NCBI GenBank assembly: GCA_020199905.1
Contig: JAIVJS010000021.1
Coordinates: 14,649 to 78,648, forward strand
DNA length: 64,000 nucleotides
Source: Acidobacteriota bacterium
Lineage (GTDB): Bacteria; Acidobacteriota; Thermoanaerobaculia; UBA5066; Gp7-AA6
Direction: 5' to 3'
Of this stretch, positions 3,780 through 22,922 are shown one piece after another; the stretch's first letter is position 1, and every line of letters starts with the position of its first letter. The position numbers were made by a program, and so were the translations under genes. The notes beneath the pieces were generated by a model. It made no database searches and was not told where the DNA came from. It saw only the letters and a list, made by a program, of their open reading frames with translations.

Positions 3780-6700
3780 TCACCGCGCGCGCTCCATTCC
3801 GGAAGCACGCAGGGTCCCCTTCCTGCGCGCGCGTTCCTTCATCAGCAAAAAGATGACGGGCGTGACGAGGAGCACATGAAGCGTCGACGTGAGCATTCCT
3901 CCCACGATCGGGGTTGCGATCGGGCGCATCACCTCGGATCCGGTTCCCGTCGACCAGAAGATGGGCACGAGCGAGAGAATCGCGGCGGATACCGTCATCA
4001 GCTTCGGGCGAAGGCGCAACACGGATCCTTCGCGAGTGGCCTCGAGCACGTCCTCGCGAGTCAGCTCGCCCTTGCCAATGCGCTTGTCGAGCGCCTCGTG
4101 GAGGTAGATGACCATCAGGACCCCGGTCTCCACGGCGACCCCGTAGAGGGCGATGTACCCGATCCAGACGGCGACCGAAAAGTTGTAGCCCAGCAGCCAC
4201 TGGAGAATGACACCGCCTGTCATGGCATAGAGCACGGACAGCATGACGATGGTCGCTTCCGAAGCGGATCGGAACGTCATCGTGAGCAGGATGAAGATCA
4301 GGCCGAAAACGATCGGCAAGACAACTTGAAGGGTCTTCCGGGCATGAACCTGGAACTCGAACTGGCCGGTCCAGTCGAGCGTCACCCCCGCCGGCAGCTT
4401 CACACGCTCGCCCACGCGGCGCTGAGCGCCGTGCACGAATCCCACGAGGTCAGACGTCGTCGTGTCGACGTACACGATTCCGGAGAGGCGTCCGTTTTCG
4501 TCCTTGTACATCGGCGGCCCGGAAACGATGCGAAGCGTCGCGAGCTGTCCCATCGGAATCTGCGCGCCGGATGGCGTCATTACGAGGACGCGCTTGAGGG
4601 ACTCGAGGTCGCTTCGAGAATCCCGCGGGTAGCGAACGAGCACCGTGAAACGCCGCCGCCCCTCGACCGTCGTGGTCACCATTTTTCCGCCGGTCGCGGC
4701 TTCCAGGGTGTTCTCGATCTGCATTACGGAGAGCCCGTAGCGTGACGCCGCATCCCGGTCCACCGTGAAGTCGAGATAGGACCCGCCCGTCGTCCGCTCG
4801 GCATACACGCTGCGGGCGTCCGGCAGGTCTCTCAGAGCGTTCTCGATCTCGAGGCTGACTTTTTCGATGACGGAGTAGTCGGGGCCATACACCTTGACAC
4901 CGACCGGCGTACGGACCCCGGTCGCCAGCATGTCGAGACGGTTTCGGATCGGTTGGGTCCACGCGACCGGCATCCCGGGGACCTGAAGCTTCTCGTTCAT
5001 CGCGGTCACGAGCTCGTCCTGGGTCGCGGACCGGCTTTCCGGCCAGATCGGGCGGAAAACGGGTTTGATCCAGCCGGGCCATTTGGAATACCAGCGGGCA
5101 TGAAATCCCCTGGGCCAGTCGGACCGCGGCTTCAAAACGATCGTCGTTTCGAACATCTCCATGGGCGCCGGATCGGTGGAGCTTTCGACCTTTCCCGCTT
5201 TTCCGAGCACGGACTGAACTTCGGGAAACGTTCGGATGATCCCGTCGGTCTTGACGAGCACGTCGCGGGCCTGCTCGACCGCCATCATCGGGAGACCCGT
5301 CGGCATGTACATCACCGAGCCTTCCCGCAGCGGCGGCATGAACTCGGAGCCGAGAGACAGGGCAAGAGGCACGACCGCGGGCACGAGGAGGAAATTCAAC
5401 AGGAGCGTCGTCCTGGGGAAACGGAGGGCGCGATTCAGAACGGGGGCGTAGAGCCGCCGAAAAAACATCGCGATCGGGTTCTGCTCTTCGGCGCGGATCC
5501 GCCCCCGCATCCAGAAGACCATCAGGACGGGCACCAGGGTGACCGACAGAAGAGATGCCGCCGTGATCGCGAACGTCTTCGTGAAAGCGAGCGGATGGAA
5601 GAGGCGGCCTTCCTCGCCTGTCAGCAGGAACACCGGCAGAAAAGAGACGACGATGATGATCAGCGAGAAGAAGATCGGCCTGCCCACCTGCTGCGAGGCG
5701 GCGACGATCGCCGATTCATGTCCCTCCTTCCCGGCCTTCGGATCCACCCCGGCCAGATGACGGTGCGCGTTCTCGACCATGACGATCGACGCATCGACCA
5801 GGACCCCGATCGCCAGAGCGAGGCCTCCCAGGGACATGATGTTGGACGAGACGCCGAGCAGGTACATGGGCAGGAACGAAATCGCGATTGCGATGGGAAG
5901 GACCGTGATGGGAACCAGGGCGGATCGAAAGTGGAACAGGAAGAGAGCAATGACCAGCGCGACGACGATCATTTCCTCGACGAGCGTTTGACGCAGCGTG
6001 TCGATCGCGCGCCGGATGAGGCCCGTTCGGTCGTAGGCGATTTCGAGCTTCACGCCGGGAGGAAACGAGGAGGAGAGCTCGGCGATCTTCTTCTTCACGG
6101 CCTCGACGACTGTGAGGACGTTCTCTCCCGAGCGGACGATCACGACGCCGCCGACCGCTTCGCCTTCGCCGTTCCAGTCGATCACGCCGCGCCGCATTTC
6201 CGGGCCGAAATGGACCGAGGCGACATCGGAGAGGTACACGGGAGTGCCGGTCGACACTTTCGAGCGGATCGAAATCCGCCGGAGGTCATCGAGGTTCTGA
6301 AGATAGCCGCGACCGCGCACCATGTATTCGCGCCCCGACCATTCGACGACCCGGCCGCCGACGTCCCCGTTGCTCTCCTGGACCGCGGTCAGCACATCCT
6401 GAAGGCCGATGCGGAACGACGCCAGCCGGGCCGGATCGACCTCGATCTGGTATTGCTTCTGGAACCCGCCGACGGATGAGATCTCCGCCACGCCCGGCAC
6501 CGCGCGCAGCCAGTAGGAGAGGTCCCAGTCCTGAAAGGTCCGCAGATCGGCGAGGGAATGCCGGCCGCTCCTGTCCACGAGCACGTATTCGAAGCCCCAC
6601 CCGACCCCCGTGGCGTCCGGACCGAGGTTCGGATTGACCTCGGGAGGAAGCTGGCCCTTCAGGCCGTTCAAGTACTCCAGAACCCGGCTTCTTGCCCAGT

Positions 6701-7010
6701 AGAGGTTCGTCCGGTCCTCGAAGATCACGTAAACGTAGGAATATCCAAAGAATGAGTACCCCCGCACGGTCTTGACCCTCGGCGCGGAGATGAGGGCCGA
6801 GACGATGGGATACGTCACCTGGTCCTCGATCAGGTTGGGGCTCTGCCCACCCCAGTTCGTGTACACGATCACCTGCACGTCCGAGAGGTCGGGGAGCGCG
6901 TCCAGAGGCGTGCGGCGGAGCGCCCAGAGGCCCGCGGCGAACGCGCCTCCGACGAAGAGCAGCGTCAGGAACCTGTTCCGCACGCAGACGGCGATCAATT
7001 TTTCGATCAC
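3780..7010 (-). CDS. cusA: CusA/CzcA-family heavy-metal RND efflux permease
   Basis: 1076 aa; DALPDLSDVQVIV, LGPDATGVGW, GVLVDASIVMVEN, RLRPKLMT; Met-rich MVEM-type site. Confidence 0.95.
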   Translation of the reverse strand: MIEKLIAVCVRNRFLTLLFVGGAFAAGLWALRRTPLDALPDLSDVQVIVYTNWGGQSPNLIEDQVTYPIVSALISAPRVKTVRGYSFFGYSYVYVIFEDRTNLYWARSRVLEYLNGLKGQLPPEVNPNLGPDATGVGWGFEYVLVDRSGRHSLADLRTFQDWDLSYWLRAVPGVAEISSVGGFQKQYQIEVDPARLASFRIGLQDVLTAVQESNGDVGGRVVEWSGREYMVRGRGYLQNLDDLRRISIRSKVSTGTPVYLSDVASVHFGPEMRRGVIDWNGEGEAVGGVVIVRSGENVLTVVEAVKKKIAELSSSFPPGVKLEIAYDRTGLIRRAIDTLRQTLVEEMIVVALVIALFLFHFRSALVPITVLPIAIAISFLPMYLLGVSSNIMSLGGLALAIGVLVDASIVMVENAHRHLAGVDPKAGKEGHESAIVAASQQVGRPIFFSLIIIVVSFLPVFLLTGEEGRLFHPLAFTKTFAITAASLLSVTLVPVLMVFWMRGRIRAEEQNPIAMFFRRLYAPVLNRALRFPRTTLLLNFLLVPAVVPLALSLGSEFMPPLREGSVMYMPTGLPMMAVEQARDVLVKTDGIIRTFPEVQSVLGKAGKVESSTDPAPMEMFETTIVLKPRSDWPRGFHARWYSKWPGWIKPVFRPIWPESRSATQDELVTAMNEKLQVPGMPVAWTQPIRNRLDMLATGVRTPVGVKVYGPDYSVIEKVSLEIENALRDLPDARSVYAERTTGGSYLDFTVDRDAASRYGLSVMQIENTLEAATGGKMVTTTVEGRRRFTVLVRYPRDSRSDLESLKRVLVMTPSGAQIPMGQLATLRIVSGPPMYKDENGRLSGIVYVDTTTSDLVGFVHGAQRRVGERVKLPAGVTLDWTGQFEFQVHARKTLQVVLPIVFGLIFILLTMTFRSASEATIVMLSVLYAMTGGVILQWLLGYNFSVAVWIGYIALYGVAVETGVLMVIYLHEALDKRIGKGELTREDVLEATREGSVLRLRPKLMTVSAAILSLVPIFWSTGTGSEVMRPIATPIVGGMLTSTLHVLLVTPVIFLLMKERARRKGTLRASGMERAR

Positions 7011-8488
7011 CGGGAACCGTCCGGCTTTCTGCCGCTCGGCTGAGCGGGCTGCCCCGCGGAGCCCGCCGGCGCGGCTCCGATCCCACCAATGCGGGATTCA
7101 GAATCGATCAAAAAGTTTGCCGACGTGACGATGGTTTCGCCTTCGGCGAGTCCCGAGAGCACTTCCACGAATTCTTTTCCCGAGGCTCCGGTCTTGACGG
7201 CCCGCGGCGCGTACACGCCGGCAGATTGCTCGACGAACGCGATCTGACGATCTCCCGTGTCGATGAGCGCCGATCGGGGCACGGAGAGGACGTCGCGTTG
7301 CCCGGCCTGGAGAGAAACCCGAACGAACATCCCGGGCTTGAGCGAGCCCTTCGGGTTCGGAACGACGACCCGCACCTTGATCGTGCGAGTCTCCTCCGAC
7401 AGCGTCGGATAGACGAAGTCCACGCGGCCCCGAAACGTCTCCCCGGTCAGAAACGACGCCGTGATCTCCGCGGGGTTGCCCTTCGCGACGGACCCCATCT
7501 CCGACTGGTAGACGTCCGCGAGAACCCAGACGGATGAGAGATCGGCGATCGTGTAGAGAGCCATTCCGGGAGTGATCGCCATGCCCGCGACGGCGTCCTT
7601 CTTCAAGACGACCCCGGAAGCGGGGGAGTACAGAGTCAGGGTCTTCGAGATCTCTCCCTTCTTCTCGATCCGCTCTATCTGCGATTCGGAGATGTCCCAG
7701 AGCCGGAGACGCTGGCGCGTCGCGGCGAGAAGCGATCCCGCGTCCGAAGCGGCGCCCGCGCTCGATGAGGCCTGCAGCCGTCGCGCGTTCTCGACCGCCA
7801 GAAGCAGCTCTCTTTCCGTCGCGACGAGCTCGGGGCTGTAGACCGTCAGGAGGGCCTGGCCGCGCCGGACAGGCTGGCCGGTGCGATCGACGAGCAACTT
7901 GTCGATGTATCCCGAGAATTTCGCGCTGACGGAATTCAGCCTGCCCTCGTCTTCTGCGATGACGCCGTTGGTTTCCGTCGCTCCTGCGATCTGACGGCGC
8001 GTGACCTTCCCGGTCGTCACGCCGATCTGCTGCCGCCGTTCGAGCGGGATGCGGACGACGGAAAGGCCCGGAGGGACCGAGCCCGCAGAGACGGGCTCAC
8101 CCTCCGCGTATTTCGGAATCATGTCCATTCCGCAATCGGGCGATTTGCCAGGCCGGTCCGACCGGTACTGCGGGTGCATCGGGTCGTACCAGAAGAGGAC
8201 CTTCTTTTCGGCGGGAGCCGTGGTTGTCTGCGCCTCTTCGGCGTACTTCGGCAGTAGCTGCATGTCCATGAAGGGCGATTTGCCGGGGTGGTCGAAATGG
8301 ACGTCCGGTTTCATCGGGTCGTACCAGTACGCGACCTTCTTCCCGGAGTCCCGCTTCCGGGAGGCGTCCGGGGCGACGTTTGCGCCGGGGCCCGCGCCCG
8401 CCGGCGGCCGGTCCGTTTTGCGGCACGCCAGAGGCGCGAGCAGGACGAGAATTGCGGCTCCGCAGAGCCTGGCGGCATCACTTCTCAT
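7007..8488 (-). CDS. cusB: CusB-like RND periplasmic adaptor with two N-terminal heavy-metal-binding repeats
   Basis: ATG 8488; lipobox-like LAPLAC; YWYDPMKP..PGKSPFMDM and FWYDPMHP..PGKSPDCGMDM; LYSPEL, ANFLIDSES. Confidence 0.9.
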   Translation of the reverse strand: MRSDAARLCGAAILVLLAPLACRKTDRPPAGAGPGANVAPDASRKRDSGKKVAYWYDPMKPDVHFDHPGKSPFMDMQLLPKYAEEAQTTTAPAEKKVLFWYDPMHPQYRSDRPGKSPDCGMDMIPKYAEGEPVSAGSVPPGLSVVRIPLERRQQIGVTTGKVTRRQIAGATETNGVIAEDEGRLNSVSAKFSGYIDKLLVDRTGQPVRRGQALLTVYSPELVATERELLLAVENARRLQASSSAGAASDAGSLLAATRQRLRLWDISESQIERIEKKGEISKTLTLYSPASGVVLKKDAVAGMAITPGMALYTIADLSSVWVLADVYQSEMGSVAKGNPAEITASFLTGETFRGRVDFVYPTLSEETRTIKVRVVVPNPKGSLKPGMFVRVSLQAGQRDVLSVPRSALIDTGDRQIAFVEQSAGVYAPRAVKTGASGKEFVEVLSGLAEGETIVTSANFLIDSESRIGGIGAAPAGSAGQPAQPSGRKPDGSR

Positions 8489-9773
8489 GCGGTTCTCCTG
8501 GCGATGGGGTTCCGGCAATGAGGGGAAGGCCGGAGGCTTTCTGAAGAGCGGCGAGCGCGCGGCCAATCCCGGCGGCGCGCGTCGCGATCTCGCCTTCGTA
8601 GGTATCGAGGTCGAGAGCCGCGCGCACGTACGTCTCGAAGTCGATCTGACCGACCGCGTAGGACTCCTGCGCCGCTCGGAAGTTGATCTCCGCCTGGGGC
8701 ACGATCGTGGTGCGATAGAGCTTCTCCTGCTCGACGTTCCGCTCGAGCTCCACCGCCGCCGCTTCCACGTCGCGGCGAATCTGGTTTCGCACGGCTTCGA
8801 GATCGGCCCGAGCCGAAGAGAGCTCCGCCGCCATTTCGGCGCGTTTCGCCTCGAGGCGGCGAGGATGCGCGAAGGGAAGGTTGATGGAAACGAAGGCGCC
8901 GGCAAGATCCTCGAACTTCTCGCGGCGGCCGTAGTAGGTCGAGACCATCCAGTCGGGCCTGCGGTCGAGCCCCGCCAGCCGCAACTCCTCTTCGGACCGG
9001 CGCAGCGTCGCTCGCGCTGCGGCAACCGCGGGGCTCTTCTCCTCCGCCTCGCGTTCTACGGCGGCGGAATCGGGAATCGAGGGAACCGGATCGAGAGGCC
9101 CGATGACAGGGACTGCGGCCCTGGCGGGAAGAGCCTGCAGGGCGTTCCACCGCGCCGAAAGCACCCGTCTCTCGGCTCTCAACGAGAGGAGACGATCCTC
9201 GAGCGCGGTCGCCGCCAGGTTGGCGCGGAGCACGTCGCTCTGCCCGGCCTTGCCCACCTCATAGCGTTCCTTAGCCGACGCCGAGGTCGTCTTGAGGCGC
9301 TGGCGGGATCGTTCCAGAATCTCCAGGCGCATGTCGAGCTCCGCGATCCCGAAGAAGGCGTCGGCGACGTCGGCTGCAATCCCGACAGCGTGGACGGCAT
9401 GCATCGCGAGCGCATTCTCGGAAGCGGCCTCCGCCGAAGCGCGACGCGTCGCGAGTTTTCCGCGTCCCGGCAGGCTCTGCCGTGCGGTGATCATCTCCAT
9501 CGTGAAGTTGTCCCGCGTGAGCGACGGGCTCGAGACCGGAATGTCCTTGATCCCGACTTCCAGCTCCGGATCCGGGAAAGAGCCGGCCTGAGCGACTCGC
9601 TGTCGAGACGCCTCGATTCGTGACTCCATTGCGGAGAGCTCGGGATTCCTGGCCACGGCGAGTCGGATTGCCGATTGAAGCCTCGAGCTCCAATCCGGAT
9701 CGGCGACGGGACTCTGGCCTTTTACAAAGGGCGCGACGGCGAAAATCGCCGTCGCCAGGCGACGCAGACGCAT
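8478..9773 (-). CDS. TolC-family outer membrane factor (CusC-like)
   Basis: LAVARNPEL, FPDPEL, SINLPF; position upstream of cusBA. Confidence 0.9.
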   Translation of the reverse strand: MRLRRLATAIFAVAPFVKGQSPVADPDWSSRLQSAIRLAVARNPELSAMESRIEASRQRVAQAGSFPDPELEVGIKDIPVSSPSLTRDNFTMEMITARQSLPGRGKLATRRASAEAASENALAMHAVHAVGIAADVADAFFGIAELDMRLEILERSRQRLKTTSASAKERYEVGKAGQSDVLRANLAATALEDRLLSLRAERRVLSARWNALQALPARAAVPVIGPLDPVPSIPDSAAVEREAEEKSPAVAAARATLRRSEEELRLAGLDRRPDWMVSTYYGRREKFEDLAGAFVSINLPFAHPRRLEAKRAEMAAELSSARADLEAVRNQIRRDVEAAAVELERNVEQEKLYRTTIVPQAEINFRAAQESYAVGQIDFETYVRAALDLDTYEGEIATRAAGIGRALAALQKASGLPLIAGTPSPGEPHEK

Positions 9774-9779
9774 ACAACG

Positions 9780-9832
9780 CTCCAGTTCTCGTAATGCCGG
9801 CGAGAGCCGGCGATCTGCGAACGAGAAGGGAG
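9780..9832 (-). promoter_or_regulatory. Anti-Shine-Dalgarno stem between the leader ORF and tolC
   Basis: On the minus strand CUCC-C-UUCUCGU (9832-9821) pairs with ACGAGAA-CU-GGAG (9792-9780). GGAG is the tolC SD, 6 nt before ATG 9773. Inner GCCGGC-UCUC-GCCGGC hairpin. Confidence 0.65.
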
Positions 9833-9833
9833 A

Positions 9834-10184
9834 TTAGAGCCGCAGGGCGGTCGGCAGGGAAGAGGGAGGAGGCGAGGCGGACGTGAAAGCGAGCGACGCA
9901 GGCGCCGCCGAGAAACCGGTGAAAATACGGCCGGGAGCCGCGGGAATCAACGCCACGAGACCTCGACCCGACGAAAAAGCCAGGCCCGCCCGAAGACAGG
10001 ACGTGGCCGAAGGCGATTCAAAGGCGCTGCTCCCGCAGTCCTGATCGCAGCACGAAGAAGAGCGAAACGAGTTGGGCGAAACGGGATCTGCGCAGCAGCT
10101 GGCGCACAAGGTCTGAGCGGATAGCCCCCCGGTCGCGAGGACGGCCGCCAGAACGAATCCCAGGAGTCGGAATCGAGGGGTCAC
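9834..10184 (-). CDS. Secreted Cys-motif leader protein (DUF2946/CutF-like candidate)
   Basis: Signal peptide, CASCC and CCDQDC, Pro-rich C-terminus SPPPSSLPTALRL; directly upstream of tolC. Confidence 0.6.
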   Translation of the reverse strand: MTPRFRLLGFVLAAVLATGGLSAQTLCASCCADPVSPNSFRSSSCCDQDCGSSAFESPSATSCLRAGLAFSSGRGLVALIPAAPGRIFTGFSAAPASLAFTSASPPPSSLPTALRL

Positions 10185-10264
10185 ACCCCCGTCAACCGGC
10201 GTCCCGAGCTATCCATTCCGGCGCCGGCCTGTTCCCTTCCGGCGGGCTCCGCCAACTAACGGGA

Positions 10265-10402
10265 TCAACGACAGTCGGGATGCCCGCAGCCGCATTTCCC
10301 GCCGGACATCTTCCCCTGAGCGCAGGCCTCGGAGCAGGATCCGTTGGGTTGATCTGTCTGACATTTGCACGCGGCATGCTTGCATCTGGTTTCTTCAGCC
10401 AT
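10265..10402 (-). CDS. Metallothionein-like small protein (45 aa)
   Basis: MAEETRCKHAACKCQTDQPNGSCSEACAQGKMSGGKCGCGHPDCR: 8 Cys, 2 His; GGAGG SD before ATG 10402. Confidence 0.75.
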   Translation of the reverse strand: MAEETRCKHAACKCQTDQPNGSCSEACAQGKMSGGKCGCGHPDCR

Positions 10403-10499
10403 TTCTTTCCTCCCTGGCTTCGGAGGATGCAAGACTCGCACCTCGCTGAACGCGACCTGCGCCAGGTCGGGTTCCTGGATCTCCCGCTTCTCTTTGCTC

Positions 10500-11027
10500 C
10501 TACGGCTGCGCCGACGCATCGCGCTCGTACTGCCTGCGACCATACCGGGTGAGGCCCCGCGGCTTGTACACCGACAGTGTCGTGGCCACGAGCAACACCA
10601 GCAGTGCGGCGCCGGCATCAGCCACGAGTTGAATTCTCAGGCCGCGGAGATCGGCACCGGACAATGGCATCCGTGCCGCGACGCCTGCCACGTAGGACGT
10701 TGGCCGCATGTGCACCACCAGGAGAACGGTCGCAAGGATGGTGATCAGGAGTTTGATCAAGACCCAGTAGTGTCGGAACAAACCCCACGTGGTACCCAGC
10801 GCCTGGATCAGCCCTGTGAGCAGCGACGCGACACTCAGGGGGACGATGACGAGCCAGCCGATCAACTCCATCGCGAGATAGGCGGCACGCACCCTCTGAG
10901 CGTCCTGGCTGGCCAGACCGGCGACGGCGAGTGCGAGGAAGCCAGCGACCGCGCCGAGCCAGCCGACCGAGGAAGTGACATGCGCGGTGAGGGCGAACTT
11001 GCGGAGGCGGGGTGTCATCGTCATCAC
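10500..11027 (-). CDS. DUF2269-like integral membrane protein
   Basis: LTAHVTSSVGWLG, WGLFRHYWVLIKL, LSVYKP; four TM segments. Confidence 0.75.
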   Translation of the reverse strand: MMTMTPRLRKFALTAHVTSSVGWLGAVAGFLALAVAGLASQDAQRVRAAYLAMELIGWLVIVPLSVASLLTGLIQALGTTWGLFRHYWVLIKLLITILATVLLVVHMRPTSYVAGVAARMPLSGADLRGLRIQLVADAGAALLVLLVATTLSVYKPRGLTRYGRRQYERDASAQP

Positions 11028-11212
11028 GGCATGTGGCCCCGGAAGCCGCCGCCGGTCAGATGCAGGATGACAAAGAGAAGGACCAGGACGATCGCGATGA
11101 GCCCGAAGACGTAGACCCAGCGTGGTGTGCCGGGGGTGGATACGAGGTCGAATTCCCGACGGCTGATTCCGTCGTTGCCCTTGGAGTCGGGTTGAGGGGG
11201 TGGATCGGGCAC
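11024..11212 (-). CDS. Small single-pass membrane protein
   Basis: TPRWVYVFGLIAIVLVLLFVILHLTGGGFRGH; its TGA overlaps the next ATG. Confidence 0.6.
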   Translation of the reverse strand: MPDPPPQPDSKGNDGISRREFDLVSTPGTPRWVYVFGLIAIVLVLLFVILHLTGGGFRGHMP

Positions 11213-11267
11213 AGGGTTTCTCCTCGTCTGAGGCGCGTCGACCTCGAACCGGGACGCGAGTTTATCG

Positions 11268-11280
11268 AGACAGTCTGTCT
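11268..11280. promoter_or_regulatory. Candidate TetR operator
   Basis: Perfect palindrome AGACAG-T-CTGTCT in the divergent intergenic region upstream of tetR. Confidence 0.55.
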
Positions 11281-11337
11281 TGTGTCAAGTCATAGCGTCT
11301 CGACAGACCGACACTCGCGTCGCGCATACTGGGAAGG

Positions 11338-11910
11338 ATGCCGAAGCTCTGGAACGAGACCATCGAAGCGCACCGCCGCGAGGTTCGTGACGCGATCCTG
11401 GACGCCACGGCGGCGCTGGTGGCCGAGCGCGGGCTGGCGTCGGTGACAATGTCGCGGATCGCCGGGGAATCCAGGATCGGGCGGGCGACTCTTTACAAAT
11501 ATTTTTCAGGCGTCGAAGCGATCCTCGTGGCGTGGCACCAGCGTCAGGTCAGAGCCCACTTCGAGTACCTGATCCAGGTTCGGGACCAGGCGGGCGATGC
11601 GGGCGAGCGGCTCGAAGCCGTCCTCGAGGCCTTCGCGCTCATTTCTCACGAGCACCATGGCACGGAGCTCGCGGCACTCCTGCATCGGGGGGAGCACGTC
11701 GCCCGAGCGCAGCAGCACTTGAGCGACCTGATTCGAGACCTTCTGACCGAGGCCGCAAAAACCGGCGATCTCCGGGACGATGTCTCGCCTGACGAGCTGG
11801 CGAGCTATTGCCTCCACTCCTTGACGGCAGCCAGCCGTCTCCGTTCCAAGGCCGCGGTCCGCCGGCTCGTCAAAGTCATTCTGGCTGGACTGCGCCCCGG
11901 TCCCTCCTGA
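11338..11910 (+). CDS. TetR/AcrR-family transcriptional regulator
   Basis: ILDATAALVAERGLASVTMSRIAGESRIGRATLYKYF helix-turn-helix. Confidence 0.95.
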   Translation: MPKLWNETIEAHRREVRDAILDATAALVAERGLASVTMSRIAGESRIGRATLYKYFSGVEAILVAWHQRQVRAHFEYLIQVRDQAGDAGERLEAVLEAFALISHEHHGTELAALLHRGEHVARAQQHLSDLIRDLLTEAAKTGDLRDDVSPDELASYCLHSLTAASRLRSKAAVRRLVKVILAGLRPGPS

Positions 11911-11946: not shown

Positions 11947-12870
11947 TCAAAAGCCCGCTCCGCTCCGGAGTCTGGAGAGCAGTTGCATCATGCCCGCCCA
12001 TTCGCTTCTCAGTTCGGGGATGTCCATCTGCCGGAACTGGCGGTCGGCTTCGCGCCCGTCCTGCCACAGGTGATCGACGTTGCCGCGGACGTCCTCCGGG
12101 CTCAACCCGCGCTCGTACCGTTCGTGAAAAGCGTCGGCTTGCTGCGCGAAGTGCTCGATGGCCTCGACAGTGCCCCTCCGGCCCTCGTCGTCCCGGTAGC
12201 GGCCCGTGAGCTGGCTCGTCAGGCTGGACAGGCGCGCGGAGCGTTCGGCAAGTTCATGGGCCAGCGCCGCGACCTGCTCCCGGTCATAACCCCGCCCCTC
12301 CGGTCTTCCCACCTCATACCGATCATTCGACCGGTCGTTGGAGTAATAGCCCGAGCCCGCCGGCGGGGCAACGTGCTCGTCGCGGTATTGCGGTTCCGGG
12401 GCGCCGTACTGGTTGCGTGCGAGATCCGATTGGTAGACCCGGATCATCTGGTTCAGCAGGATGACCACCTGGTTCCAGTCGCCGACCGTGTGGCGATCCG
12501 CGTTCCGGGAACGTCTCAGCCGGTATTGAACCGCTCTGGCGTCGCGCAGGATGAGGCGCAGTTCGTCGTCGACCTGCCAGGGCGCCGTGCGGTAATCGTC
12601 CATGCGGTCGTGAAACCGATTCGCGCGGTTGGCAAAGCTGTTGATCGACCTCAGGAACCGGGGGTCGTGACCGTAGAACCAGACTCCCTGGTGCTGTGCC
12701 TGGTCGTTGGCGTGCTGGGCCTGCTCGTCGAGCTCGTGCGCGAATTGACGCATTTGCTGGTAGCCGCGGTCAGACAGGGTGTCGTGATCCCCCCTCGCGG
12801 TGCCCGCGGCCAGAAACAGAAGCGCGAACCCTGCCCCGAGGAGCGCCGTCGTTCTGTTTTTCGCGTTCAT
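11947..12870 (-). CDS. Hypothetical secreted two-domain helical protein (paralog of 18502..19407)
   Basis: GGAGG SD, signal peptide, internal repeat (FAHELDEQA / LAHELAERS), shared YRTAPWQxDDELR motif. Confidence 0.75.
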   Translation of the reverse strand: MNAKNRTTALLGAGFALLFLAAGTARGDHDTLSDRGYQQMRQFAHELDEQAQHANDQAQHQGVWFYGHDPRFLRSINSFANRANRFHDRMDDYRTAPWQVDDELRLILRDARAVQYRLRRSRNADRHTVGDWNQVVILLNQMIRVYQSDLARNQYGAPEPQYRDEHVAPPAGSGYYSNDRSNDRYEVGRPEGRGYDREQVAALAHELAERSARLSSLTSQLTGRYRDDEGRRGTVEAIEHFAQQADAFHERYERGLSPEDVRGNVDHLWQDGREADRQFRQMDIPELRSEWAGMMQLLSRLRSGAGF

Positions 12871-13134
12871 GCTGTCGCCTCCCAACTCTTCGTTTCAGCA
12901 AGGAACGGTCCACATCGGAAGGGCTGTGTCCGGAAGCACTTGCGGGTCGCGCAGAAGCCGGAGTGTCCTCCCTCGGGGACGATTCGTAACCCTCCGACCA
13001 TCCGGGCGGCCTCGCCGCCGCCTCGGACGGCAGCGTCCGCGTCGATCTGGCATCCGGGGGAAGCTCTCCGCCCTCCCGGGGCGGTCCACCCGGGTGGAAT
13101 CCGGGGCGTGTCGTGAGAGTTAGGAAGCCTTGAG

Positions 13135-13578
13135 ATGAAGACCCGGAGTTGCTTCGCCGTCGCGCTCGCTCTGGTCCTGGTGGCGTTGCCTGTCTTCGCC
13201 GGGGTTTGCGACCTGCGGTGCGCCTCGGCGCAGGGCGCGATGCGTCGCTTCGGGGTCCAGGAGAGGGCAACCGAATCGACCACCGGTTCCGGTCTCGACG
13301 CCATGTCCTGCCCTCTTCACGCCGCCGACAAGTCGGATCCGGAGCCTTTTCCATCGTCTTCGAGTCCCTGCCATGGCCAGCGCGGCGGTGGCAGCGGCGC
13401 CGTTCTCGTGGCCGCTTCCGCCTCCCCCTCCTCGATGAGCTTCGGCCACTCTCCGGCATTCGAAGCCTCGTCCGTCCCCGACCTCGTGCGCGCCGGCGCG
13501 AATTCTTCTCGCTCCCGCGAGTCCGAGTTTCACCGAAGGCCCGGGTTCTCCCCGCTTCTTTCGATCCTCCGACTCTAA
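13135..13578 (+). CDS. Secreted Cys-motif leader protein (DUF2946/CutF-like candidate)
   Basis: Signal peptide ending VFA, CDLRC, SCPLH, CHG, C-terminus RRPGFSPLLSILRL; first gene of the beta-barrel operon. Confidence 0.6.
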   Translation: MKTRSCFAVALALVLVALPVFAGVCDLRCASAQGAMRRFGVQERATESTTGSGLDAMSCPLHAADKSDPEPFPSSSSPCHGQRGGGSGAVLVAASASPSSMSFGHSPAFEASSVPDLVRAGANSSRSRESEFHRRPGFSPLLSILRL

Positions 13579-13580
13579 GA

Positions 13581-13668
13581 CTTCGTTCAACCAGGTCGTC
13601 ACCGCTCCTCCACGCGTTGAAGCGCGCCGGTCGGAGCGGCTCAGCAGTCCGTGAACCTGTGAACGAGG
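13581..13668 (+). promoter_or_regulatory. Anti-Shine-Dalgarno stem between the leader ORF and the beta-barrel gene
   Basis: CUUCGUUCA (13581-89) pairs with UGAACGAGG (13660-68), which contains the GAGG SD of ATG 13678. Inner stem CCGCUCC (13602-08) / GGAGCGG (13633-39). Confidence 0.65.
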
Positions 13669-13677
13669 ACTCCCGAA

Positions 13678-15081
13678 ATGAAAGCATTTGCTCCCGCATT
13701 CGTCTTCGCGTGGCTGATCGCCGGTGGCGCTCTCGCGCAGCACGAGCATCATTCCTCCGCGCCGTCGCCGACACCCACCCCGGCCCCGGAGGGTTCGACT
13801 CCGGGCGATAAGGATCCGATGAAGGGGATGGACCACAGCCAGATGGATATGCCGATGACCGGCGAACCTGACGCCAGCCGCAACCTCTTCCAGTCCGACA
13901 TGAACCTGATGACGGGGATGACACCGCACGATCCGATGGCGGGCATGACCGGCATGACCGGCTGGCACCTGATGGATATGGGAATCGCGCGGCTGTCCTA
14001 CAACCGGCAGGGAGGCGCATCGGGAGGCAACAGGATCGAGTCCAGCAACTGGAACATGATTCATGTCCAGAAAGCGATCGGTCCGGGCCGCCTGTCATTG
14101 ATGATGATGAACTCCCTGGAGCCCGCGACTTTCGCCAAGCGAGGCTCTCCTGAGCTCTTCCAGACAGGCGAGAGCTTCCGCGGGGAACCCCTCGTCGATC
14201 GGCAGCACCCCCACGACTTCTTCATGAACCTCTCCGCGACGTACCGGCTGGATCTGGGGCCCGACGCGGGCGCCTGGTTTCAGCTTGCGCCGGTCGGCGA
14301 GCCGGCCCTCGGACCGACCGCGTTCATGCACCGCGCTTCCTCCGGCGACAACGGAACCGCACCGCTCGGGCACCACTGGCAGGACTCGACGCACATCGCC
14401 TACAACGTCGTCACGCTCGGGGGAGGCTGGAAGTGGCTCGCTCTCGAGGGTTCCGCTTTTCGAGGAAGAGAGCCGGACGAACACCGCTGGGACATCGACG
14501 GAGGCAGGATTGACTCGGCTTCTCTCCGCGCGAGGTTCTTCTTCGGAGGAGGCTGGTCCGGCCAGGTTTCCCACGGCTACCTGCGGCAACCCGAGGATCT
14601 CGTGCCCGGAAACACGCATCGGACGACTGCCGCCGTGGAGTATGGAGCGGAAGGCGACCGGCCCCTCGCGGTGACGCTGCTGTGGGGGAGGAACGTGGAA
14701 ACACACGGAACGAGTGACGCCTACCTGTTGGAAGGGGCCTGGCAAATGACGGCGACAGATCAGCTCTACGGCCGCGCGGAGCTCGTTCAGAAGGATCGCG
14801 AGCTTCTCGAAACGAAGCAGAGCTCCGGCGGCCGCGACGGCGGCGGGCAAGAAGAGCTCGTCCGGGTCGGTGCCTACACGGCGGGCTACGTTCGGGATTT
14901 CGACTGGGTGTCCGGACTGCGGACGGGGATCGGCGCCGACGTCACGGCCTACAGCTTTCCGTCGAGCTTGAAGCCTGTCTACGGCGACTTTCCGCTCTCC
15001 GTCCATGCTTTTCTGCGGCTGAGATGGGGCTCGCCCCACGCGGCCGCCGGACACGCGGGACATGCTGGAATGAAGATGTGA
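13678..15081 (+). CDS. Putative outer-membrane beta-barrel protein with His/Met-rich termini
   Basis: Signal peptide, QHEHH, MKGMDHSQMDMPM, amphipathic beta-strand pattern, C-terminal HAAAGHAGHAGMKM. Confidence 0.7.
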   Translation: MKAFAPAFVFAWLIAGGALAQHEHHSSAPSPTPTPAPEGSTPGDKDPMKGMDHSQMDMPMTGEPDASRNLFQSDMNLMTGMTPHDPMAGMTGMTGWHLMDMGIARLSYNRQGGASGGNRIESSNWNMIHVQKAIGPGRLSLMMMNSLEPATFAKRGSPELFQTGESFRGEPLVDRQHPHDFFMNLSATYRLDLGPDAGAWFQLAPVGEPALGPTAFMHRASSGDNGTAPLGHHWQDSTHIAYNVVTLGGGWKWLALEGSAFRGREPDEHRWDIDGGRIDSASLRARFFFGGGWSGQVSHGYLRQPEDLVPGNTHRTTAAVEYGAEGDRPLAVTLLWGRNVETHGTSDAYLLEGAWQMTATDQLYGRAELVQKDRELLETKQSSGGRDGGGQEELVRVGAYTAGYVRDFDWVSGLRTGIGADVTAYSFPSSLKPVYGDFPLSVHAFLRLRWGSPHAAAGHAGHAGMKM

Positions 15082-15312: not shown

Positions 15313-15942
15313 ATGTCGAAGCCGAAAGGGATCCTTCTCGTCCTGCTTCTCGCCTTCCTCGCCGGGGGCGCGGTCTTGTTCGCCGGCATGGTTCGGCGCG
15401 GTTTCAGTGCTCGGGACACGCCGTCGATGCCGGAGGCCTTCATGGCGCAACGGATGCGCCGCTGGTCGATCCCCGCGAAGGCGCGGGAGATGAAGAATCC
15501 GTTCGCGGACTCGGCGGAAGCCGTCGCCGGAGGTCGGGCGCACTTCGCCGACCACTGCGCGACCTGTCATGGCAATGACGGGAGGGGCAAGACGGAGATC
15601 GGCCAGAACCTCTACCCGAAGGCGCCGGACATGTGGGGCAGGGAAACTCAGAAGCTCTCTGACGGCGAGATTTTCTACATCATCAAGAACGGCGTCCGTC
15701 TGACCGGCATGCCCGCGTGGGGACAGGACACCCCGGAAGACGATCGGCAGTCGTGGCACCTGGTCGCATTCATCCGTCACATGCCGCGGATCACGGCGGA
15801 AGAGCTCGAGGCGATGAAAGCGATGAATCCCGTCAGCCCCATGGAGATGAAGGAAGAGAAGGAAACCGACGAGTTTCTGGAGGGAGGCGACGCGTCGAGG
15901 CCGTCTCCCGAGCACAAACCGGCCGCCAAACACGGCCATTGA
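15313..15942 (+). CDS. Membrane-anchored c-type cytochrome
   Basis: CATCH heme motif, YPKAPDM, LSDGEIFYIIKNGVRLTGMPAW. Confidence 0.9.
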   Translation: MSKPKGILLVLLLAFLAGGAVLFAGMVRRGFSARDTPSMPEAFMAQRMRRWSIPAKAREMKNPFADSAEAVAGGRAHFADHCATCHGNDGRGKTEIGQNLYPKAPDMWGRETQKLSDGEIFYIIKNGVRLTGMPAWGQDTPEDDRQSWHLVAFIRHMPRITAEELEAMKAMNPVSPMEMKEEKETDEFLEGGDASRPSPEHKPAAKHGH

Positions 15943-20456: not shown

Positions 20457-22922
20457 GTGAGCAGTAAAGAACAGCGGCCCCCCGAGGCGAAGTCCGGAGC
20501 GAACCCTCTCAGGGATGCGGTCTGCGGGATGACGGTTTCGGAAGAAAGTTCCCATCGGGAAACATGGAACGGCCGGCCGTTCGTCTTCTGCAGTGCAGGG
20601 TGTCAGGAGAAGTTCAGGGAGCATCCCGAGCGCTACGTTCTCCGGCCCGAACCAGTGCCTCTTGCCGCGACCGGGACTGCGCCGGCGCCCATCGCTTCGG
20701 GAGAGAGTTTGACTTGCCCGATGCACCCGGAAGTCCGAGAAAAGAGCTCCGGCTCCTGCCCGAAGTGCGGCATGGCCCTCGAAGGAGTGATCCCCTCGTC
20801 TGCGGCCTCGAGGGCGCAGTGGACCTGCCCGATGCATCCCGAGATCGTCCGCGATGGTCCCGGCAGCTGTCCGATCTGCGGGATGGCGCTCGAGCCGCGG
20901 ACGATTTCGGCAGGCGACCGAGAGAATCCCGAGCTGGTTGACATGCGGCGGAGGTTCGCAGTCTCCGCTGTGCTGTCCGTTCCCCTTCTCGTCATTGCCA
21001 TGCGCGACCTCCTCCCGGGATCTGCCGGAATGGGCGCCTCCGGGGTCCTGCCGTGGGTCGAGCTCGCGCTGGCGACGCCGGTTGTCGTGTGGGGGGGCTG
21101 GCCCTTCTTCGTTCGGTTTGCGCAGTCGATCCGAAATCGCAGCCTGAACATGTTCACGCTGATCGGCCTGGGCGTCGCCGTCGCGTACTTCTACAGTCTG
21201 GCGGCCATCTTCTTTCCGGGTCTTTTCCCCGCGTCGTTCCGGGATGCTTCAGGACACGTCGGGCTGTATTTCGAAGCGGCGGCCATCATCGTCACGCTCG
21301 TGCTTCTGGGCCAGGTTCTGGAGTTGAAGGCCCGGAGCCAGACGGGTGCGGCGATCCGCGCCCTCCTGGATCTCGCCCCGAAGACCGCCCGCCGCATCGA
21401 GCAGGGCGGCGCCGAGGTCGATATCCCTCTCGATCAGGTCCAGGTCGGCGATCGGCTCCGGGTTCGGCCGGGGGAGAAAATTCCGGTCGACGGGAGCGTC
21501 GTGGAAGGCCACACCGCGGTGGACGAGTCGATGGTCACGGGTGAGCCGATTCCGGTCGAAAAGAATGCGGGTGATCGACTCATCGGATCCACGGTCAACG
21601 GCACCGGCTCGGTCGTCCTGACCGCGGAACGCGTCGGGGCCGAGACGATGCTTTCTCAGATCGTCCGGCTCGTCAGCGAAGCGCAACGCACGCGCGCGCC
21701 GATCCAGAAGCTCGCCGATCTGGTGGCCGGCTACTTCGTTCCGATCGTCATTGCCGTCGCCGTCATCACCTTTGGCGTCTGGGCGTTCGCCGGGCCCGAT
21801 CCCAGGATGGCTCATGGTCTCGTGAACGCGGTCGCGGTCCTCATCATCGCCTGCCCCTGTGCCCTCGGGCTCGCAACGCCGATGTCCATCATGGTGGCGA
21901 CCGGGAAGGCGGCAAAAGCGGGGGTGCTCTTTCGAAATGCCGAGGCCATCGAGTCCTTGCGAAAGGTCGACACCCTCGTGATGGACAAGACCGGAACGAT
22001 CACGGAAGGAAAGCCTAGGGTCGCAGAGATCCTGGCGCAGCCCGGATTCGAGGAGGCGGAAGTGCTTCGACTCGCGGCGAGCCTCGAGAGAGGAAGCGAG
22101 CATCCTCTGGCGGCATCCATCGTTGCGGCCGCCGGAGAGAGGCAGGTCCGACTCGAGCCAGTCGGCGACTTTCAATCGCGGACGGGACGAGGCGTGTCGG
22201 GCCGGGTTGCAGGACGCGCCGTCGCGCTCGGAAACGCGGCTCTCCTGGCGGAAATGGGCCTCGATCCGGCAGGGCTCGGCGCTCGGGCGGAGGACATGCG
22301 GTCGCGGGGTCAAACGGCGGTCTTTCTGGCCGTGGACGGAAAGATGGCCGGGATTCTCGGCATCGCGGATCCCATCAAGAAGACGAGCCCGGAGGCGATC
22401 GGCCACCTCCGCGCCGAAGGGATCCGCGTCGTCATGCTCACCGGCGACAGCAAGACCACCGCGAACGCGGTTGCGAAGGAGCTCGGAATCGACGAGGTCG
22501 TCGCGGAGGTGCTCCCGGAGGACAAGGTGAACGTCATCAAGCGCTATCAGGCTGAAGGCCGGTTCGTGGCGATGGCTGGCGACGGGGTCAACGACGCTCC
22601 GGCCCTCGCCCAGGCGCAGGTCGGAATCGCGATGGGGACGGGAACGGACGTCGCGATGGAAAGCGCCGGCGTGACGCTGCTCCGAGGCGACCTCCTGGGA
22701 ATCGTGCGTGCCCGAAGCCTGAGCCGCGCGACCATGCGGAACATCAAACAGAATCTCTTTTTCGCCTTCGTTTACAACGTGCTCGGAATTCCCATCGCAG
22801 GGGGCGTTCTCTATCCTTTTTTCGGTGTTCTTCTGAGCCCGATGATCGCTGCCGCGGCGATGAGCTTCAGTTCCGTTTCGGTGATCGGGAATTCACTGAG
22901 GCTGAGTCGAACGAAAGTTTGA
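20457..22922 (+). CDS. copA: Copper-translocating P1B-type ATPase with N-terminal YHS and two heavy-metal-binding repeats
   Basis: DAVCGM..FCSAGC, TCPMHPE x2, [35 protein letters not shown]. Confidence 0.95.

Follow-up and report, generated by a model that had tools for sequence, protein, structure and literature searches.

In a stretch of 64,000 nucleotides (nt) from an Acidobacteriota bacterium (Thermoanaerobaculia, Gp7-AA6; contig JAIVJS010000021.1), referred to here as the window, an open reading frame (ORF) of 116 amino acids (aa) precedes a cusCBA-like efflux operon, and the 12 nt right after its stop codon are predicted to pair with the cusC-like gene's Shine-Dalgarno sequence (SD). 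Judged by its sequence and that of its relatives, this ORF is conserved at the coding level, its spacing fixed and its last residues invariant, and the arms of the stem that follows it co-vary across loci. We think it fairly probable, with some reserve, that the ORF is not a structural gene and that its product acts in cis as an exported sensor-leader peptide, whose ribosome unmasks the SD in the manner of CutF.

A leader ORF and a stem at the cusC Shine-Dalgarno sequence

What does the DNA upstream of the cusC-like gene hold? The first-pass annotation of this stretch, made from the letters alone, had described a 116-aa ORF with a signal peptide and the motifs CASCC and CCDQDC, and a stem that begins one nt past its TAA and whose 3' arm is the SD of the tolC-type gene; both are present (Table 1), and the 86-nt stretch from 9765 to 9850 folds with a minimum free energy of -31.1 kcal/mol. 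The ORF reads MTPRFRLLGFVLAAVLATGGLSAQTLCASCCADPVSPNSFRSSSCCDQDCGSS...SASPPPSSLPTALRL up to the TAA, and its C-terminal end is SPPPSSLPTALRL. By sequence features the N terminus is signal-peptide-like, with two Arg in MTPRFR and then the hydrophobic stretch LLGFVLAAVLATGGLSA, and in the AlphaFold prediction residues 4-17 are helical; judged in the same way, a Sec-type signal-peptide layout is common to all homologues. The mature part carries CASCC (CxxCC, C26-C30), CCDQDC (CCxxxC, C45-C50), and one further Cys, and after these motifs a Ser/Ala/Pro-rich stretch of about 64 aa, which is not conserved, leads to SPPP and the terminal LRL. In the RNA, a single U separates the stop codon from the pyrimidine-rich 5' arm, and the GGAG of the 3' arm lies 6 nt ahead of the ATG at 9773; the partners of the SD core in the minimum-free-energy fold stand at +2 to +5 past the leader stop. 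The inner G+C-rich hairpin keeps its position across relatives while its sequence differs.

The pairing recurs in the homologues. All 13 loci of the first leader family have a stop-to-start intergenic region of 60-68 nt, and in all 13 minimum-free-energy folds the SD region is paired with nt at the stop or immediately 3' of it, around a G+C-rich inner hairpin; 9-12 of the 12 SD-region nt pair with the first 20 nt counted from the stop codon, and the anti-SD lies 2-7 nt past the leader stop. The arm pairs differ by locus (CUCC.UUCUCGU/ACGAGAA..GGAG, ACCCCUC/GAGGGGGU, CUUCCUUUGUAC/GUACAGAGGAG, and GACUUUCUCUUUCC/GGAAAGAGGGAGUC), and they co-vary: matched arms pair at -18.3 kcal/mol and swapped arms at -13.8 kcal/mol, a mean cost of 4.5, and 0 of 20,000 permutations over the 13 loci reach the matched value. 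Per-sequence folds and this arm-swap permutation test were used because an alignment was unworkable; MAFFT with RNAalifold yielded no structure common to the 13 intergenic regions, the arm sequences being too divergent. A covariance model built from three close sequences found five further loci (L089, L092, L093, L003, and L087) at their exact stop-to-ATG coordinates, with weak scores and with spurious and reverse-strand matches among the results, and no pair counts were taken from that alignment. The sense strand is more stable than the antisense strand in 10 of the 13 loci, and G-U accounts for 33 of 306 pairs, a strand asymmetry that lends mild support to a structure at the RNA level.

How conserved is the peptide itself? 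The ORF has no match in Pfam, NCBIfam, or Rfam; a word-index homology search with this single sequence returned nothing, and a full phmmer scan gave 2 matches only, so wider recovery required a profile. Homologues were reached both by synteny and by hidden Markov model search, with loci collected via the downstream genes; the leader alignment itself has no segment conserved well enough to serve as the query of a locus search. Six loci with close TolC relatives (60-78% identity) come from metagenome-assembled genomes of Acidobacteriota/Thermoanaerobaculia, five of which have a homologous ORF directly upstream of tolC, and profile searches added 18 further database proteins, all labeled "hypothetical" and without Pfam domains. 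Members of this first family are 22-40% identical, and they keep the signal peptide, C-x-[ST]-C-C, C-C-x3-C, and the terminal L-R-L (L-R-I in one member), with L-R-[LIV]-stop in 24 of 24. From CCxxxC to the C terminus the distance is 63-66 residues (mean 64.3, standard deviation 0.78, n = 20) over intervening sequence that is unconserved. Given the family alignment, AlphaFold returned a mean confidence (predicted local distance difference test) of 50.7 and no secondary structure except the signal helix; the mature leader is thus predicted to be disordered.

On these sequences, the invariant C-terminal element is L-R-[L/I/V]-stop and not the Pro run. R at -2 is invariant, and L, I, or V stands at -1, in all 45 aligned members, a set whose second-family loci (see below) were picked by a C-terminal regular expression, such that frequencies at -3 to -1 are partly selected. 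PP occurs within the last 16 residues of 33 of the 45 and is absent from the entire protein in 10. Leaders end [P/V/I/A/S/T]-L-R-[L/I/V], with PIRV at the end of one (L079), and an SPP motif is frequent 8-14 residues upstream of this ending. In the window leader, SPPP lies 10-12 residues from the C terminus, with PPP 9-10 codons before the stop, and RAPP is lacking, as the first-pass annotation had remarked. Codons pooled over 52 loci include CTT, CTG, CTC, TTG, and CTA for the Leu at -3 and CGC, CGT, CGG, CGA, and AGA for the Arg at -2, and the stops are TAG in 22, TGA in 18, and TAA in 12. Because synonymous Leu and Arg codons and all three stops are used, selection acts on the peptide and not on the RNA.

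The downstream operon, a second leader copy, and the wider family

The sequestered SD belongs to the first gene of a single operon that joins an outer-membrane component of the OEP family, a CusB-type adaptor, and a CusA-type pump (Table 1). The pump keeps the Cu(I)/Ag(I) methionine triad (E. coli CusA M573, M623, and M672), and YMP, EMxET, and DMLxTG are conserved in the alignment. Two heavy-metal-binding repeats stand at the N terminus of the adaptor, whose start is approximate and overlaps the 3' end of the cusC-like gene; in homologous loci, HMBD and CusB domains are on record for it. No cusF gene was seen.

Table 1. Features of the two leader loci, in window coordinates
Feature	Position	Strand	Details
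Leader ORF	9834..10184	minus	GTG start, 116 aa, stop TAA
Leader stop, one U, and pyrimidine-rich 5' arm (anti-SD)	9821..9836	minus	TAA 9836-9834; 5' arm CUCC-C-UUCUCGU 9832-9821
Inner G+C-rich hairpin	9793..9815	minus	GAU-C-GCCGGC-UCUC-GCCGGC-AUU; GCCGGC/GCCGGC at 9811-9796
3' arm	9780..9792	minus	ACGAGAA-CU-GGAG; includes cusC/tolC SD (GGAG, 9783-9780)
cusC-like outer-membrane efflux protein (TolC/OEP family)	8478..9773	minus	431 aa; Pfam OEP E = 9e-33
cusB-like periplasmic adaptor	7007..8494	minus	NCBIfam CusB 264 bits, under 390-bit cutoff
cusA-like RND pump	3780..7010	minus	TIGR00914; 1020 bits to E. coli CusA vs. 515 to ZneA
Second leader ORF	13135..13578	plus	147 aa; signal peptide, CDLRC, CPLH, PCHG; end ...FSPLLSILRL, TAA
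Intergenic stem of second leader	13579..13677	plus	5' arm GACUUCGUUCA 13579-13589, pairs with UGAACGAGGAC 13660-13670
Secreted His/Met-rich protein of unknown family	13678..15081	plus	467 aa; downstream of second leader

Several neighbors of the operon deserve mention. The sole sigma-70-like promoter match in 9600-11400, TTGACA-18-TAAACT at 11259-11288 on the minus strand, points to a 62-aa ORF, a DUF2269 membrane protein, a metallothionein-like ORF, the leader, and cusCBA, and a TetR-family regulator (11338-11910, plus strand) is divergent from it. Since the promoter faces the cusCBA side and the TetR-family gene is divergent, the pump may have TetR-type transcriptional control as well. The metallothionein-like ORF (10265-10402, minus strand), which encodes 45 aa with 9 Cys (MAEETRCKHAACKCQTDQPNGSCSEACAQGKMSGGKCGCGHPDCR) behind a strong SD (GGAGGAAAGAAATG), lies 80 nt upstream of the leader; its segment CSEACAxG...GGKCGCGHxxC resembles the SmtA/BmtA bacterial metallothionein motif, and its match to Pfam Metallothio_Pro has an E of 0.26 only. 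Inside the leader ORF, at 9980-10000 on the minus strand, there are two overlapping weak terminator-like hairpins with a T-run (2 found vs. 0.8 by chance), which are probably not significant. The minus strand at 11947-12885 encodes a secreted protein of 312 aa that has no known function, abounds in Arg, Asp, Glu, and Gln, and has only weak DUF6381 and GspH-like matches; it also stands beside the leader in the closest relative (L001, 1753-2376). On the plus strand, 20457-22922 encodes a heavy-metal P-type ATPase that bears a YHS domain at its N terminus and two HMBD repeats. With this ATPase, cusCBA, the metallothionein-like ORF, and two leader cassettes, the first 23 kb or so of the window looks like a copper/metal-resistance island.

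The second cassette precedes a different gene. Its 5' arm begins right after the stop of the second leader, and the partner arm holds the SD GAGGA (13665-13669). The 467-aa protein downstream contains repeats such as MDHSQMDMPM and MTGMTPHDPMAGMTGMTGW; it has no convincing Pfam match (DUF6234 is sub-threshold, E = 0.066) and none in NCBIfam or the PDB, and at least 507 relatives are found in bacterial genome contigs, mostly of Acidobacteriota. The protein probably belongs to an undescribed family of the cell envelope with a role connected to copper. Its gene is followed by one for a cytochrome c (15313-15942). BLASTP between the two window leaders is not significant, and their relatedness as paralogues rests on shared architecture and a common profile.

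How far does this leader type extend? Of 80 fetched loci with a relative of the 467-aa gene, 38 carry upstream of it a Cys-containing ORF that ends [LIVM]-R-[LIVM]; these span Thermoanaerobaculia, Terriglobia, Vicinamibacteria, and others, and four more have near-variant endings (RRL, LKV, LQI, and LRA). A profile search found 16 further database proteins of this second family, all of which end LR[LI]. The family has CxxxC plus CH motifs, and in the common alignment the median distance between the invariant Cys and the C terminus is 64 residues (interquartile range 59-67). Here, too, stop-proximal and SD-proximal segments pair better when matched (-12.2 kcal/mol) than when swapped (-10.5 kcal/mol; 2 of 5000 permutations).

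The leader type heads three different downstream genes, namely, tolC-cusBA, a gene for an HMA/thioredoxin protein, and the gene for the 467-aa protein. Most of the 13 first-family loci have tolC-cusB(A) downstream, and two have the HMA/thioredoxin-like gene: in L088 (769-1449) and L092 (1373-2053), an LRL-type leader and an intergenic stem of 62-68 nt stand ahead of a 226-aa HMA plus thioredoxin-like protein and not of tolC, which points to a portable regulatory cassette. Another type of upstream Cys-containing ORF (L006, 2396-2857; L075, 1722-2072; L076, 1622-2017) sits ahead of tolC or of the 467-aa gene and ends ...GLFTLFAVFLI or ...DVGLHMLFATFLI, resembling the ...FCSLLI of a Xanthomonas leader; in L006 the anti-SD, read from the sequence, is again right after the stop. 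In the Pyrinomonadaceae loci L027, L033, and L046, very Cys-rich small ORFs (e.g., ...CCCKGDGHAAKDKSCCQKHSGEHKGCCGGDSCNIK...) lie upstream of the 467-aa homologue; these are metallothionein-like and are not LR[LIV] leaders.

A proposed mechanism and its competitors

How might the cassette work? In the undisturbed mRNA, the SD would be masked and the pump poorly translated. When a stop codon occupies the A site, the ribosome covers some 10-12 nt of mRNA beyond it. From this geometry, a ribosome on the leader stop would take the 5' arm into the part of its mRNA channel that extends these 10-12 nt to the 3' side, and the SD, about 45 nt further downstream, would be freed for a second ribosome. 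As the ribosome on the stop would hold the 5' arm single-stranded and the SD free, its dwell time there would set translation of the pump, which would scale with it. The putative dwell element is the invariant L-R-[L/I/V] together with the frequent SPP upstream, and it would slow termination or ribosome release. About 64 residues span the ribosome tunnel plus the translocon, and for that reason the Cys cluster, 63-66 residues from the C terminus, would be just emerging from SecYEG on the periplasmic side as the ribosome arrives at the stop. Binding of Cu(I)/Ag(I), as against disulfides, in the Cys cluster would set the pulling force on the nascent chain and hence the rate at which the ribosome departs; if CutF is a guide, the dwell would lengthen with metal and cusCBA would be turned on. 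The same cassette may control the second gene in the window and other metal genes elsewhere. We rejected a ribosome paused at PPP as the opener of the stem, since PPP lies 9-10 codons before the stop while the stem starts after it, and such a ribosome could not reach it; PPP more probably contacts the tunnel. Likewise rejected, on sequence grounds, were three other readings of the leader ends, namely, as a PEP-CTERM signal, as a lipoprotein signal, or as a tag for a tail-specific protease.

Several points weigh against a sensing leader of this kind. Its dependence on metal, its export, and the pausing are inferences. Taken singly, the window sequence gives a modest fold statistic (z = -2.5, with 5 of 200 shuffles folding equally well), and codon-position GC1/2/3 of the leader is 0.59/0.68/0.70, compared with about 0.65/0.47/0.81 in neighboring genes; the case for the reality of the element therefore rests on the comparative evidence. 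There, part of the SD pairing is compositional, because a shuffled pyrimidine-rich 5' arm still pairs with about 7 of the 12 SD nt. When both families are pooled, 28 of 49 intergenic regions, some with start codons assigned by heuristics, pair the SD core with positions at most 20 nt from the stop in the minimum-free-energy fold. The partial selection of second-family endings has been noted above, and the same stem occurs with the endings FQT, LLI, and FLI (in proteobacterial leaders and L006), such that LR[LIV] is not required for the architecture.

What else could the ORF and its stem be? The product might be a working periplasmic metal-binding protein, an accessory or chaperone of the CzcI or CusF kind, with a stem that couples cusC to it without sensing and an LR[LIV] end that serves in the periplasm for partner docking or as a protease/PDZ tag. 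A stop-adjacent stem alone would suffice for plain translational coupling of this sort, and the Cys-rich mature part could bind metal. Yet the mature protein is unconserved bar the Cys cluster and the last residues, low in complexity, and predicted to be disordered, and a folded or free periplasmic protein would hardly be expected to keep a fixed spacing of 63-66 residues over an unconserved linker; the genes downstream of this leader type are unrelated to one another, and a basic penultimate residue is not known from the recognition tails of tail-specific proteases or DegS. We judge such coupling unlikely, even with the precedent of CzcI-type proteins upstream of czcCBA, which have been proposed as periplasmic regulators (PMC9973294).

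That the hairpin instead decides the fate of the transcript, as an intrinsic or Rho-dependent attenuator or as a processing or stabilizing element, seems quite improbable to us: most loci lack a U-tract after the hairpin, the terminator scan at the stem found no terminator, the intergenic region of 60-68 nt is short and structured and thus a poor Rho loading site, and the 3' arm is always the SD, with which the arms co-vary. This reading draws on the strength of the inner G+C-rich hairpin, on a UUUU after the hairpin in the relative L087, and on CruR, the other studied family member, which uses Rho-dependent termination in its intergenic region. A chance ORF in a high-G+C 5' untranslated region, with the hairpin alone functional, would suit the atypical codon-position GC, the failure of the word-index search, and the absence of a Pfam or NCBIfam family; it is extremely improbable given that frame, Cys motifs, the 63-66-residue spacing, and LR[LIV] are kept at 22-40% identity with synonymous codon turnover, and that an [LI]R[LIV] ending occurs in only 2 of the 339 window ORFs of at least 60 aa, the two leaders.

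If the favored reading, a sensor-leader peptide acting in cis, is right, metal sensing in the mode of CutF and CruR would extend to a phylum without an earlier description of it, with a large unannotated family as its carrier. Its reuse before at least three kinds of metal genes would mark the leader as a cassette and not a dedicated partner. The combination of L-R-[LIV]-stop, 63-66-residue spacing, and an anti-SD 2-7 nt past the stop would offer a defined module for the study of arrest, unlike Pro-based stalling. Hundreds of "hypothetical" small ORFs would be flagged as regulatory leaders, and the metal-resistance islands of soil Acidobacteriota could be better annotated.

Comparison with known leaders and arrest peptides

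How does the acidobacterial leader relate to the copper leaders already studied? The product of CutF (DUF2946; cutFOG of Rhodobacter capsulatus) is not a stable protein; a stem-loop shields the SD of the next gene, the ribosome of the leader opens the stem, and the nascent chain senses periplasmic copper (PMC9973294; bioRxiv 10.1101/2025.02.05.636593). The acidobacterial leader appears to share this logic, as the first-pass annotation had proposed, in that a putatively exported Cys-motif ORF and an intergenic stem over the downstream SD stand before a cusCBA operon of Cu/Ag type. It differs from CutF in its Cys motifs (CxxCC...CCxxxC vs. CxxxC), in the invariant L-R-[LIV] right before the stop in place of a PPP/EF-P-dependent site, in a distance of about 64 residues from Cys to C terminus, in its phylum, and in a downstream gene for an efflux pump where CutF has a multicopper oxidase. 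The kinship to DUF2946 that had been suggested finds no support in the profile, since PF11162 matches neither the window ORF nor any of the 45 family members at E<=1.

CruR (DUF2946; bp2923 of Bordetella pertussis) is likewise an upstream ORF that responds to copper, in which a Cys motif and an arrest motif at the C terminus are strictly spaced (PMC9426467), and a Cys motif and fixed spacing are found in the acidobacterial leader too. The annotation had also credited CruR with an SD-blocking stem, which belongs to CutF only; in CruR, copper relieves arrest, and Rho-dependent termination follows (PMC9426467). CruR differs further in its CXXC and RAPP, the latter three residues from the end, its 45-residue spacing, its signal-sequence-independent action, and its 162-nt intergenic region, where Rho-dependent termination lets copper turn a downstream importer off.

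The identity of the target as an efflux pump was read correctly in the first pass, and its novelty was not, as outer-membrane efflux proteins of the CusC/CzcC type are already the commonest downstream neighbor of CutF-like proteins (PMC9973294). CutF-like leaders of Proteobacteria and Bacteroidota (CzcI, "CusD/SilD", and CopL) are, as here, small exported Cys/His ORFs before the outer-membrane gene of a metal RND system. In plasmid loci of Cupriavidus gilardii and Xanthomonas vesicatoria, we find an anti-SD next to the stop, an inner hairpin, and the SD, and both leaders have PPP about 10 residues from the end; their last residues differ, as they end ...PPPLNILHCSFQT and ...PPPLQRFCSLLI and not LR[LIV]. 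The cusC-upstream leader of Cupriavidus matches DUF2946 weakly (E = 0.0044), and hhalign of the family profile against the two proteobacterial leaders gave 74% and 0.6% probability. At the level of sequence, then, the stop-adjacent anti-SD architecture is general, and the LR[LIV] end, the Cys pattern, and the 64-residue spacing mark an acidobacterial variant. CutF-like leaders before cusC-type genes are already described; the acidobacterial family is unannotated in databases.

Does the ending itself have a precedent? The insect peptides apidaecin (...PRPPHPRL) and drosocin (...HPRPIRV) sit in the exit tunnel oriented as a nascent chain would be and, at the stop codon, trap RF1/RF2, with the penultimate Arg touching the Gln of the release-factor GGQ and the C-terminal residue or carboxylate touching A76 of the P-site tRNA; activity is lost in apidaecin R17A and drosocin R18A, and the substitutions that apidaecin tolerates include P16L, which gives the end ...LRL (PMC11549390, PMC11347161, PMC10449632). 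A penultimate Arg and a C-terminal aliphatic residue, as in the ends of termination-arrest peptides and proline-rich antimicrobial peptides of type II, are present in the leaders at the sequence level; both groups share a C-terminal [P/I/L]-R-[L/V], and the PIRV of L079 is the end of drosocin. However, the insect peptides act in trans on ribosomes whose product is already released, whereas the leader motif is the end of a bacterial nascent chain, in cis, and the apidaecin contact residues P11, R12, and H15 are unmatched in the leaders. A text search, with incomplete literature coverage, found no paper tying apidaecin-like endings to bacterial leader peptides.

As a tentative idea, doubtful on present evidence, L-R-[L/I/V]-stop could be a natural cis-acting counterpart of the apidaecin/drosocin end. 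The Arg and the aliphatic residue would engage the GGQ loop and the P-site tRNA and keep both the ribosome and the release factor at the stop, either ahead of hydrolysis or right after it, for a time set by the metal-dependent pull of the Cys/His cluster; the chain would still be in the tunnel at the stop because it is threaded through SecYEG. Were this true, the leaders would form a new class of termination-arrest peptide and provide phylum-wide metal sensing in Acidobacteriota, and insect type II antimicrobial peptides would exploit a weakness of the terminating ribosome that bacteria use for regulation. Should the motif slow termination, it would link arrest peptides with termination-targeting antimicrobial peptides and provide a simple system for how nascent-chain force reaches the termination step.

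Termination arrest depends in general on the penultimate residue, which is critical in TnaC, SpeFL, and PepNL, which arrest at the stop codon (PMC11890864). In SecM, VemP, and MifM, the force of translocation relieves the arrest, and an SD is unmasked. In both groups the nascent peptide governs a downstream gene by holding the ribosome, as we propose for the acidobacterial leader. None of these six arrest leaders resembles the acidobacterial leader in sequence, and the proposed input differs as well: it would be periplasmic metal, rather than the capacity for secretion or a tunnel-bound small molecule.

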